Shown: positions 29,341 through 50,834 of the stretch, in pieces
How positions within the stretch are numbered: the stretch's first letter is position 1
Layout of the letters: each line of letters starts with the position of its first letter
Source of the DNA: Phyllobates terribilis
Taxonomy: Eukaryota
Direction: 5' to 3'
Assembly: GCF_046119375.1 (NCBI RefSeq)
Contig: NW_027362764.1
Span: 388,988,001-389,052,000, forward strand
Length of the DNA: 64,000 nucleotides
Notes under the pieces: model-generated
The model's input: the letters and a program-made list of their open reading frames with translations, nothing else
Database searches by the model: none
What the model was told of the DNA's origin: nothing
Program-made: the position numbers and the translations under genes

Positions 29341-30542
29341 GAACATGTTATGTGGCAGTATACAGTGGGGAAAAAAGTACACTGCTCAAAAAAATAAAGG
29401 GAACACTTAAACAACAGAATATAACTCCAAGTAAATCAAACTTCTGTGAAATCAAACTGTCCACTTAGGAAGCAACACTGATTGACAATCAATTTCACAT
29501 GCTGTTGTGCAAACGGAATAGACAATAGATGGAAATTATTGGCAATTAACAAGACACCCTCAATAAAGGAGTGGTTCTGCAGGTGGGGACCACAGACCAC
29601 ATCTCAGTACCAATGCTTTCTGGCTGATGTTTTGGTCACTTTTGAATGTTGGTTCTGCTTTCACACTCGTAGTAGCATGAGACGGACTCTACAACCCATA
29701 GAAGTTGCTCAGGTAGTGTAGCTCATCCAGGATGGCACATCAATGCGAGCTGTGGCAAGAAGGTTTCCTGTGTCTGTCAGCGTAGTGTCCAGAGGCTGCA
29801 GGCGCTACCAGGAGACAGGCCAGTACACCAGGAGACGTGGAGGGGGCCGTAGGAGGGCAACAACCCATCAGCAGGACCGCTGCCTCCGCCTTTGTTCAAG
29901 GAGGAACAGGAGGAGCACTGTCAGAGCCCTGTAAAATGACCTCCAGCAGGCCACAAATGTGCATGTGTCTGCACAAACGGTTAGAAACCGACTCCATGAG
30001 GGTGGTATGAGGACCCGATGTCCACAGATGGGGGTTGTGCTCACAGCCCAATGCCGTGCAGGACGCTTGGCATTTGGACAGAACATCAGAATTGGCATTT
30101 CGCCACTGGCGCCCTGTGCTCTTCACAGATGAAAGCAGGTTCACACTGAGCACATGTGACAGACGTGACAGAGTCTGGAGACACCGTGGAGAGCGATCTG
30201 ATGCCTGCAACATCCTTCAGCATAACCGGTTTTTCAGTGGGTCAGTAATGGTGTGGAGTGGCATTTCTTTGGAGGGCCGCACAGCCCTCCATGTGCTCGC
30301 CAGAGGTAGCCTGAATGCCATTAGGTACCAAGATGAGATTCTCAGACCCCTCGTGAGACCATATGCTGGTGCGGTTGGCCCTAGGTTCCTCCTAATGCAG
30401 GACAATGACAGACCTCATGTGGCTGGATTGTGTCAGCAGTTCCTGCAAGATGAAGGCATTGAAGCTATGAACTGGCCCGCCCGATCCCCAGACCTGAATC
30501 CGATTGCGCACATCTGGGAGATTATGTCTTGCTCCATCCACC

Positions 30543-32172
30543 GAGTATATAGATGTGAAATATGAAATATGAATAGCATAACTGCTGTAAAAAATAGAAA
30601 TAAATGAAAAATTTTTTGAAAAATTTTTTTTAGCGCATGAAATATGAAATATGGAAAATGAATAGCATTACTGCTGTAAATAAATGAGAAATCTTAGCGC
30701 ATAAATTGGCCAATTCATGTGTACTTGACAGCCGCGGTAAGGCGTTTCTCGATGTCAGGACCTACCAATGTGAATACCTCTCTAAGAGACCTCCGTCTGC
30801 TTATGTGTGGGAAAGACAGATCCTGATGCATTTAAAACCACCTGCGGCATGGGGGTGGGGGTGGAGTGCTCAGTCAACGCTAAATCTAGTAACAAAGAAA
30901 ATGACGGCACTTCCACTACAAAAACTAGGTGTGAACAGGTGCTTACTAAGAGCAGCTACCTCCATATATAATGAACAAATAAAGTAGCACACTGTAACAC
31001 TGAGTATATAGATGTGAAATATGAAATATGAATACCATAACTGCTGTAAAAAATAGAAATAAATGAAAAATTTTTTGAAAATTTTTTTTTAGCGCATGAA
31101 ATATGAAGTATGGAAAATGAATAGCATTACTGCTGTAAATAAATGAGAAATCTTAGCGCATAAATTGGCCAATTCATGTGTACCTGACAGCCGCGGTAAG
31201 GCGTTTCTCGATGTCAGGACCTACCAATGTGAATACCTCTCTAAGAGACCTCCGTCTGCTTATGTGTGGGAAAGACAGATCCTGATGCATTTAAAACCAC
31301 CTGCGGCATGGGGGTGGGGGTGGAGTGCTCAGTCAACGCTAAATCTAGTAACAAAGAAAATGACGGCACTTCCACTACAAAAACTAGGTGTGAACAGGTG
31401 CTTACTAAGAGCAGCTACCTCCATATATAATGAACAAATAAAGTAGCACACTGTAACACTGAGTATATAGATGTGAAATATGAAATATGAATAGCATAAC
31501 TGCTGTAAAAAATAGAAATAAATGAAAATTTTTTGAAAAATTTTTTTTTTTAGCGCATGAAATATGAAGTATGGAAAATGAATAGCATTACTGCTGTAAA
31601 TAAAAGAGAAATCTTAGCGCATAAATTGGCCAATTCATGTGTACCTGACAGCCGCAGTAAGGCGTTTCTCGATGTCAGGACCTACCAATGTGAATACCTC
31701 TCTAAGAGACCTCCGTCTGCTTATGTGTGGGAAAGACAGATCCTGATGCATTTAAAACCACCTGCGGCATGGGGGTGGGGGTGGAGTGCTCAGTCAACGC
31801 TAAATCTAGTAACAAAGAAAATGACGGCACTTCCACTACAAAAACTAGGTGTGAACAGGTGCTTACTAAGAGCAGCTACCTCCATATATAATGAACAAAT
31901 AAAGTAGCACACTGTAACACTGAGTATATAGATGTGAAATATGAAATATGAATAGCATAACTGCTGTAAAAAATAGAAATAAATGAAAAATTTTTTGAAA
32001 AATTTTTTTTAGCGCATGAAATATGAAGTATGGAAAATGAATAGCATTACTGCTGTAAATAAATGAGAAATCTTAGCGCATAAATTGGCCAATTCATGTG
32101 TACCTGACAGCCGCGGTAAGGCGTTTCTCGATGTCACGACCTACCAATGTGAATACCTCTCTAAGAGACCTC
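30543..32172 (-). repeat. 459-bp tandem array, left arm, ~3.5 copies
   Basis: gagtatatagatgtg at 30543, 31002, 31461, 31922; near-identical copies; strand given is the putative ribozyme strand. Confidence 0.97.
31145..31218 (-). ncRNA. Putative HDV-like ribozyme, representative left-arm copy
   Basis: Exact reverse complement of 44639-44712. Confidence 0.5.
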
Positions 32173-50008: not shown

Positions 50009-50834
50009 TTGCTCCATCCACCAACGCCACGTTGCACCACAGACTGTCCAGGAGTTGGCGGATGCTTTAGTCCAGGACTCGGAGGAGATCCCACAGGAAA
50101 CCATCTGCAACCTCATCAGGAGCATGCCCAGGCATTGTAGGGAGGTCATACAGGCACGTGGAGGCCACACACAATACTAAGCCTCATTTTGAGTTGTTTT
50201 AAGGACATTACATCAAAGTTGGATCAGCCTGTAGTGTGTTTTTCCACTTTAATTTTGGGGGTGACTCCAAATCCAGGCCTCCATTGGTTAATACATTTGA
50301 TTTCCATTGATGATTTTTGTGTGATTTTGTTGTCAGCACATTCAACTTTGTACCGAACAAAGTATTCAATGAGAATATTTCATTCATTCAGATCTAGGAT
50401 GTGTTATTTGAGTGTTCCCTTTATTTTTTTGAGCAGTGTATTTAGTCAGCCACCAATTGTGCAAGTTCTCCCACTTAAAAAAATGAGAGAGGCCTGTAAT
50501 TGACATCATAGGTAGACTTCAACTATGAGAGACAAAATGAGAAAACAAATCCTGAAAATCACATTGTCTGATTTGGAAAGAATTTTTTTTCAAATTTTGG
50601 TGGAAAATAAGTATTTGGTCACTTACAAACAAGCAAGCTTTCTGGCTCTCACAGACCTGTAACTCCTTCTTTAAGAAGCTCCTCTGTCCTCCACTCATTA
50701 CCTGTAGTACTGGCACCTGTTTGAACTTGTTATCAGTATAAAAGACACCTTTCCGCAATCTCAAACAGTCACACTCCAAACTCCACTATGGTGAAGACCA
50801 AAGAGCTGTCAAACGACACCAGAAACAAGAAACA

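Follow-up and report, generated by a model that had tools for sequence, protein, structure and literature searches.

A dispersed, non-coding 459-bp tandem element of Phyllobates terribilis with the insertion footprint of Penelope-like elements

The stretch of DNA analysed here (the window) comprises 64,000 nucleotides of the Phyllobates terribilis genome (assembly GCF_046119375.1, contig NW_027362764.1, positions 388,988,001 to 389,052,000, forward strand) and contains a block of a repeated 459-bp unit lying within a Tc1 DNA transposon on the plus strand. The left part of this host Tc1 (29375–30542) begins with a terminal inverted repeat (TIR; 29375–29416) that matches 50402–50443 at the end of the right part (50023–50443), carries a DDE transposase frame up to the insertion and gives a PF13358 match in Pfam. 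In the 64-kb window TTGCTCCATCCACC has just two occurrences, starting at 30529 and 50009, which form the left (30529–30542) and right (50009–50022) plus-strand copies of a target-site duplication (TSD). The right copy opens with TT, two bases that match the 459-bp unit as well, so that the effective duplication measures 12–14 bp. When the flanks are joined with one copy of TTGCTCCATCCACC, the DDE frame is open through the junction. A sequence-only reading of the window had described a block flanked by 14-bp direct repeats and a transposase that reads through once the block is removed, and both observations were confirmed. The host Tc1 is in turn inserted at a TA of another Tc1-like element (29350–50830).

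The insert spans 30543–50008, 19,466 bp in total. A nested, later DNA transposon (32634–44209, plus strand), which we take to be hAT-like from its motifs, Pfam having given no hit, lies outside the mobile unit; it has an imperfect TIR and broken transposase frames and is flanked by the 8-bp TSD GTCAGGTA at 32626–32633 and 44210–44217. Together with one TSD copy it accounts for 11,584 bp, and the remaining 7,882 bp (17.2 units) consist wholly of the 459-bp unit, save for a 4-bp filler. Positions within the unit are given relative to a reference R, one complete unit at 49441–49899 (plus strand, inferred RNA sense). The block is built of two head-to-head arms of 3.55 and 13.6 units. The left arm (30543–32172, minus strand) holds the 3.55 inverted units and ends outward at R457; the filler (32173–32176), which repeats adjacent sequence, marks the inner head-to-head junction; and the right arm, in the inferred RNA sense, comprises an inner portion of 1.0 unit (32177–32633, plus strand, aligned from R276 to R280 of the next unit) and a further 12.6 units (44210–50010, plus strand) ending at R108–110. 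The earlier description of about 7.9 kb made only of the unit was right apart from the filler, but the block is more than a plain tandem array: its units lie in opposite orientations, which gives the insert long inverted arms. This head-to-head inversion, overlooked before, is the most diagnostic feature of the insertion. Inspection of the window sequence found no poly(A) at either insert end, as had been stated; as to the supposed lack of coding capacity, the insert does hold short open reading frames (ORFs) that are probably due to chance, such as one of 117 aa at 31554–31907.

Across the 10.57-Gb assembly, the unit was matched full-length at 97–100% identity on at least 11 large contigs, in agreement with the proposal that it is dispersed and mobile. 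Loci were drawn from the best-scoring 40 of 351 candidates for the 459-bp unit and the best-scoring 40 of 3219 for an older 375-bp subfamily, which lacks an internal 84-bp duplication, has short arms and ends as the 459-bp family does. The set used for counting consisted of 25 fetched loci, five found by pattern search and the window, minus L044x, giving 30 doubly flanked loci; L044x and L119 were excluded with one flank beyond the fetched sequence, as were the old-subfamily loci, many of which are copies of one amplified insertion. TSDs of 10–17 bp, with a mode of 14–15, were present at 25 of the 30 loci (10 bp at one locus, 12 at two, 13 at one, 14 at eight, 15 at eight, 16 at two and 17 at three). 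As a control for chance, 9 of 812 mismatched left/right flank pairs share a repeat of at least 10 bp; four of these nine are genuine shared target sites and five come from one T-rich TSD. Duplications of variable length had been predicted for other loci, and their lack had been named as evidence to the contrary; 25 of 30 loci carry them.

A head-to-head, two-armed structure was seen at 19 of 25 loci in the first fetches of 10–20 kb, and two further loci, L044 and L045, proved two-armed once their sequence was extended. Single-armed copies with TSDs also occur (L035, and L054x with 48 units), and arm lengths differ from locus to locus. L035 and L043 are structurally different insertions at one position of a repeated target; at this shared site, which lies in the subterminal region of the window's hAT family (window ~43910–43950), the TSD is shifted by 1 bp. 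L049 and L045x (C1:532.29 Mb and C11:420.9 Mb) have an identical 17-bp TSD and identical flanks yet do not agree in array length (11 vs 34 units), in variants or in the inner junction; alternatively, this pair could stem from a single duplicated insertion altered by conversion. Thirty-five one-arm variant patterns of period 3–5, the window included, point to later local duplication. Words of the 459-bp unit were also found in sequencing runs of two organisms, with contigs comprising allelic versions as well as the older subfamily in its shorter form; no splice-type joint is listed in the four contig sets, whose RNA status is a guess and which carry no strand information.

The outer ends of the insertions cluster at two points of the unit about 83 nt apart, site A (R25–37; plus strand, 49465–49477 in the reference unit) and site B (R105–113; plus strand, 49545–49553), the latter preceded by GAAGTGCCGTC, and both come after a GTGC...TTT.TTTGTT motif. 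Inner junctions are scattered over the whole unit and show short overlaps or fillers. The 23 TSD-bearing two-armed insertions comprise 19 with one end at A and the other at B and four (the window, L034, L042 and L048) that combine B with an end 10–75 nt short of A; none of the 23 is A+A or B+B (p = 2e-6 for 19/19 A+B). The variable start phases predicted from the window alone are refuted: the outer ends are confined to two fixed sites, and variation is limited to the inner junction. Flush ends mostly have 1–4 nt common to the TSD and the unit, and the others a few added bases. Just beyond the TSD copies, the triplet after the nick is GNC in 22 of 42 cases from 21 non-redundant sites (background 5.2%, p = 1e-17; L043, L045x, L036 and L048 not included), namely GAC 12 times, GGC five times and GTC five times. 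Because GNC stands beyond both TSD copies, the empty target is symmetric, approximately GNC-N14/15-GNC.

The two arms of an insertion were also compared for sequence variants, with homopolymer tracts masked. At the R103 marker, none of 23 loci has arms fixed for different alleles (45% would be expected under independence, p = 9e-7), and L059 holds one discordant unit. Private variants are fixed over both arms in L037x (25/25 units), L050 (7/7), L057 (5/5) and L058 (2/2), and L037x has no singleton variants. Units in register between the arms resemble each other no more closely than shuffled units do (167 vs 172.7 ± 8.4, P = 0.27); in-register copying from a heterogeneous multimer was thus not detected, in a test whose power is reduced by later array growth. 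These patterns speak for a unit-homogeneous template, which may have been a monomeric circle under rolling-circle reverse transcription or a transcript reading through a very young array, and the A+B pairing suggests that both primers used one RNA. Homogeneity can be mimicked by very young source arrays, by one active source per cell or by conversion between inverted arms. Back-splicing was considered as a source of circles and not retained: donor- and acceptor-like motifs exist in the unit, with no test result in support.

Candidate partners were sought among loci with a GIY-YIG endonuclease. Such frames are numerous in the genome, often as minus/plus pairs (150 of 4370 candidates were scored, covering a minority of the PLE families). 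Seven of nine fetched GIY-YIG loci are inverted head-to-head with their 3' ends outward, and these have reverse transcriptase (RT) frames of the Penelope-like element (PLE) type; their assignment as PLEs is presumed from the RT-plus-GIY-YIG layout and from motifs. In four such loci with a TSD (14, 18, 13 and 14 bp), one arm reaches 84–108 nt beyond the end of the other, an offset to be set against the 83 nt between sites A and B. The site-B motif GAAGTGCCGTC occurs at the 3' end of a PLE family with RT/GIY-YIG ORFs, and the pattern RAGTGCCGTC downstream of GAAACG...AATAAA gave eight matches against none for the reversed control. A pattern joining the PLE GAAACGCGT motif to site A gave no match, and the GTGAGTGCCGTCATTTYYTT pattern gave one locus, a short stretch resembling a pseudo-long terminal repeat (pLTR). 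The partner would thus belong to the PLE class. The sequence-only reading had suggested a Penelope, RTE or L1 partner; PLEs fit as the class, but no autonomous element with extended terminal similarity was found in the sampled loci. The GIY-YIG frame of L156 was rejected as partner: its own hammerhead-like end follows, and it probably belongs to another element. In the PLE families at L060–L109 and L152–L208, CUGANGA is replaced by atypical hammerhead-like motifs (UUGA/CUGA/AUGA..AAG ... GAAACGCGU). A further short head-to-head, pLTR-like non-coding insertion with the end motif GTGAGTGCC lies at L116:1400–1900.

Several properties of PLEs described in the literature bear on these structures. 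A purified Poseidon PLE was reported to cleave and extend both target strands, to start at two internal RNA sites that correspond to the genomic tail, and to insert without hammerhead cleavage (PMC11167929). Inverted, 5'-truncated PLE copies with a tail often at one end only have been described, as have mobilisation in trans by pLTRs and non-autonomous multicopy elements arranged head-to-tail (PMC8557442, PMC3846280), and an active pair of autonomous and non-autonomous PLEs makes very short insertions (PMC9977147).

The block is best explained as a single insertion of a 459-bp tandem element that is dispersed and non-coding and was likely pasted in trans by a PLE RT and GIY-YIG endonuclease that would nick both strands and copy RNA from two fixed internal sites; the probability of this explanation is put at roughly 0.78. 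In the proposed cycle, a dimeric enzyme would bind a single RNA of R polarity and nick both target strands 5' of GNC, about 14–15 nt apart, giving rise to the TSD. Of the two 3' ends, one would then start synthesis at site A and one at site B, which lie 83 nt apart; as a rule 1–4 nt would pair between primer and template, or a few bases would be added. Both complementary DNAs would traverse several units, stop at random and be joined head-to-head through short overlaps or fillers, and some arrays would later expand through local block duplication. A ribozyme would not be required at any step. Given a PLE mechanism, these data leave about even odds for a monomer-circle template. Only tentatively can the proposal be narrowed to a ribozyme-free circular-RNA retroposon, in which a 459-nt monomer circle without a hammerhead would be rolling-circle copied by a dimeric Penelope-type enzyme at a GNC-N14/15-GNC site, with A and B starts on one RNA and multi-kb arrays seeded in one step; this fuller scenario is the more doubtful one.

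A number of observations weigh against insertion by a PLE as outlined above. When the unit was compared by BLAST with 30 GIY-YIG loci, all matches were of low complexity, and at the eight loci with the site-B motif no extended similarity to the unit was found, an 11–16-nt motif being all that is common; the search pattern for this motif was moreover designed from the unit itself. The PLE TSD contexts seen, including a few from the GAAGTGCCGTC family, are mostly without GNC, so the partner is probably another family. Poseidon is described as cleaving an AT-rich ATT target, as priming without homology and as showing the same start sites on both strands (PMC11167929), and this pattern differs from the GNC target, short pairing and A+B use found here. 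TSDs were not found at five of the 30 loci (L033, L047, L052, L110 and L114); of these, L052 is cut by hAT ends, L047 has a flank in common with L048, and L114 is B+B. The window is itself irregular, its left end lying off-site at R457, about 28 nt short of site A, and GAC follows the bottom nick while no GNC follows the top one; both oddities would follow from a 17-bp TSD that stops ahead of GCC and a start at A, with 28 bp subsequently deleted between CAC repeats. Nine variants are common to both arms yet not fixed (at L059, L031_32, L050, L044x, L048 and L049, that of L049 probably being due to a gap in the alignment), a pattern compatible with heterogeneous multimers as template in some cases or with gene conversion between arms. 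Finally, the choice of best-scoring loci over-sampled long, young arrays.

The sequence-only reading had favoured a non-LTR (long terminal repeat) retrozyme, in which hammerhead cleavage of multimeric transcripts yields monomer circles that are reverse-transcribed. The dispersed tandem unit of similar size, the long TSDs, the amphibian-type host and the homogeneous arrays all agree with such an element, a preprint ties retrozymes to PLEs (10.64898/2026.07.22.740005), and a hammerhead-like CUGA...GAAAC stretch, CUGACAUCGAGAAACGCC (49676–49706, plus strand), is kept in both subfamilies. The core of this stretch fails, however (CUGACAU vs CUGANGA); it folds as a simple hairpin, and the insertion ends do not map to it. 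No CUGANGA core (at most one mismatch) and no foldable U3-A8 core, a hammerhead variant described in PMC4209133, was found on either strand of the young (459-bp) or old (375-bp) units, nor a C3-G8 core in either subfamily; the unit has no relaxed type I hammerhead fold and no Rfam ribozyme at E<=10, and it folds no better than shuffled sequences (z -0.2 to -1.5), its self-pairing being not unusual. With no hammerhead core on either strand, the 459-bp element is not a retrozyme by the defining feature, and the retrozyme model is judged improbable. What stands of the earlier inference is a mobile unit with TSDs of 10–17 bp at 25 of 30 loci that was most likely integrated via an RNA intermediate by target-primed reverse transcription, together with a plausible circular template; the retrozyme route itself does not stand. 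The CUGACAUCGAGAAACGCC stretch may be a relic of a pLTR hammerhead. In an old-subfamily copy, a loop micro-inversion within a CCTGAC...GTCAGG hairpin was noted at L111:1640–1700.

Target-primed insertion could also have been carried out by an L1 or RTE element, with twin priming of a long read-through transcript producing a 5' inversion. Twin priming sets the outer end of the inverted arm beside the start of the other arm. TSDs of 10–17 bp, the inversion and the short junction overlaps would suit this route, but such adjacency within 30 nt is seen at 2 of 19 loci, with 2.5 expected by chance, both outer ends are fixed, poly(A) is lacking, and the nicks precede GNC and not a T-rich L1 site; the fixed A+B ends largely refute it, and its likelihood is very low. 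Long inverted arms are equally a property of foldback or miniature inverted-repeat (MITE-type) DNA transposons whose arms are tandemly repeated (Tetris-, miDNA4- or FEDoR-like), the symmetry of the target motif is in keeping with a dimeric nuclease, and such elements occur in frogs (PMC12054243; FEDoR). They need a fixed-length TSD and like termini, whereas here TSDs range over 10–17 bp and A is paired with B, arm lengths and inner junctions are unique to each locus, and single-armed TSD copies exist (L035, L054x), which leaves this origin very improbable as well. A scheme with no RNA step, in which extrachromosomal circles of satellite DNA re-integrate or breaks are repaired from a template, accommodates the junction overlaps and fillers; DNA rolling circles could yield homogeneous multimers, the element is known here from DNA sequence, and even a PLE enzyme copying a single-stranded DNA template is compatible with the data. 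Circles or repair would not, however, yield one A and one B end, a 14–15-nt stagger and GNC at both nicks, and this scheme too is considered unlikely. Helitrons and Helentrons insert with no TSD and have conserved flanking element ends; a satellite carried by such an element, to which the sequence-only reading had allowed that the junctions might be due, was rejected, with TSDs at 25 of 30 loci and unit sequence reaching up to the TSD.

Among known systems, MRC1 and other non-autonomous Chlamys elements (PMC8557442) resemble the 459-bp element in being non-coding, in forming tandem multicopy insertions and in having an inverted 5'-truncated partner copy with a one-sided tail. The 459-bp element differs in its vertebrate host, arrays of up to 48 units and a tail of 83 nt vs 30–40, and extended 3' similarity to an autonomous family was not found for it in the sampled loci. 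Endonuclease-bearing (EN+) PLEs, such as Poseidon PAc of Anolis (PMC11167929) and Penelope of Adineta (PMC3846280), share with it the nicking and extension of both strands from two internal starts, head-to-head copies with a TSD and a one-end tail, and mobilisation in trans through terminal sequence alone, as would apply to the 459-bp element. Unlike them, it has no ORF, a GNC-N14/15-GNC target instead of ATT, TSDs of 10–17 vs 8–10 bp, frequent short primer-template pairing and strict use of one A and one B. Animal non-LTR retrozymes (axolotl Rtz331/353, newt satellite 2; PMC7229834) are likewise dispersed tandem units of a few hundred bases with TSDs above 4 bp, for which mobilisation by PLEs has been proposed (PMC7229834; 10.64898/2026.07.22.740005); the 459-bp element lacks a hammerhead, and its predicted self-pairing is not high, in contrast to the self-paired retrozyme circles (PMC7229834). 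The preprint linking retrozymes to PLEs favours local amplification for tandems, and the parts of it covered here hold no analysis of TSDs or inversions (10.64898/2026.07.22.740005). Multi-unit arms on both sides of one TSD argue instead for arrival as multimers.

Other features of the window include the contents of the 11.6-kb hAT-like element (32634–44209), which holds a 108-bp minisatellite (33550–35916), an RT fragment and an 18S ribosomal RNA fragment (43609–43729), and whose last 2.5 kb recur inverted at 57495–60001. An LTR retrotransposon at 18156–25708 has 1,015-bp LTRs that are 97% identical; its frames for the RT, RNase H and integrase domains are broken. Further Tc1 fragments lie at 6894–7292, 13715–15329, 40497–41102 and 54557–55024.

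The 459-bp element is a hammerhead-less, PLE-footprinted tandem retroposon with long arrays, of which the general footprint was already known for PLEs. What the family adds is the symmetric GNC target, the strict A+B use and the concordance between arms; no earlier report of a GNC target or of strict A+B counts was found in the literature, largely open-access. The steps that produce the tandem and inverted structure of PLEs are described as still undefined (PMC8557442, PMC11167929). A young, short, high-copy passenger of this kind would give a clean genomic read-out of the PLE cycle: each strand with a single start site, nicks staggered by 14–15 nt in a symmetric GNC target, and both arms derived from one template lineage. 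It would also offer a route by which ready-made satellite arrays reach new sites, and suggests that the hammerhead is dispensable for such a lifestyle.

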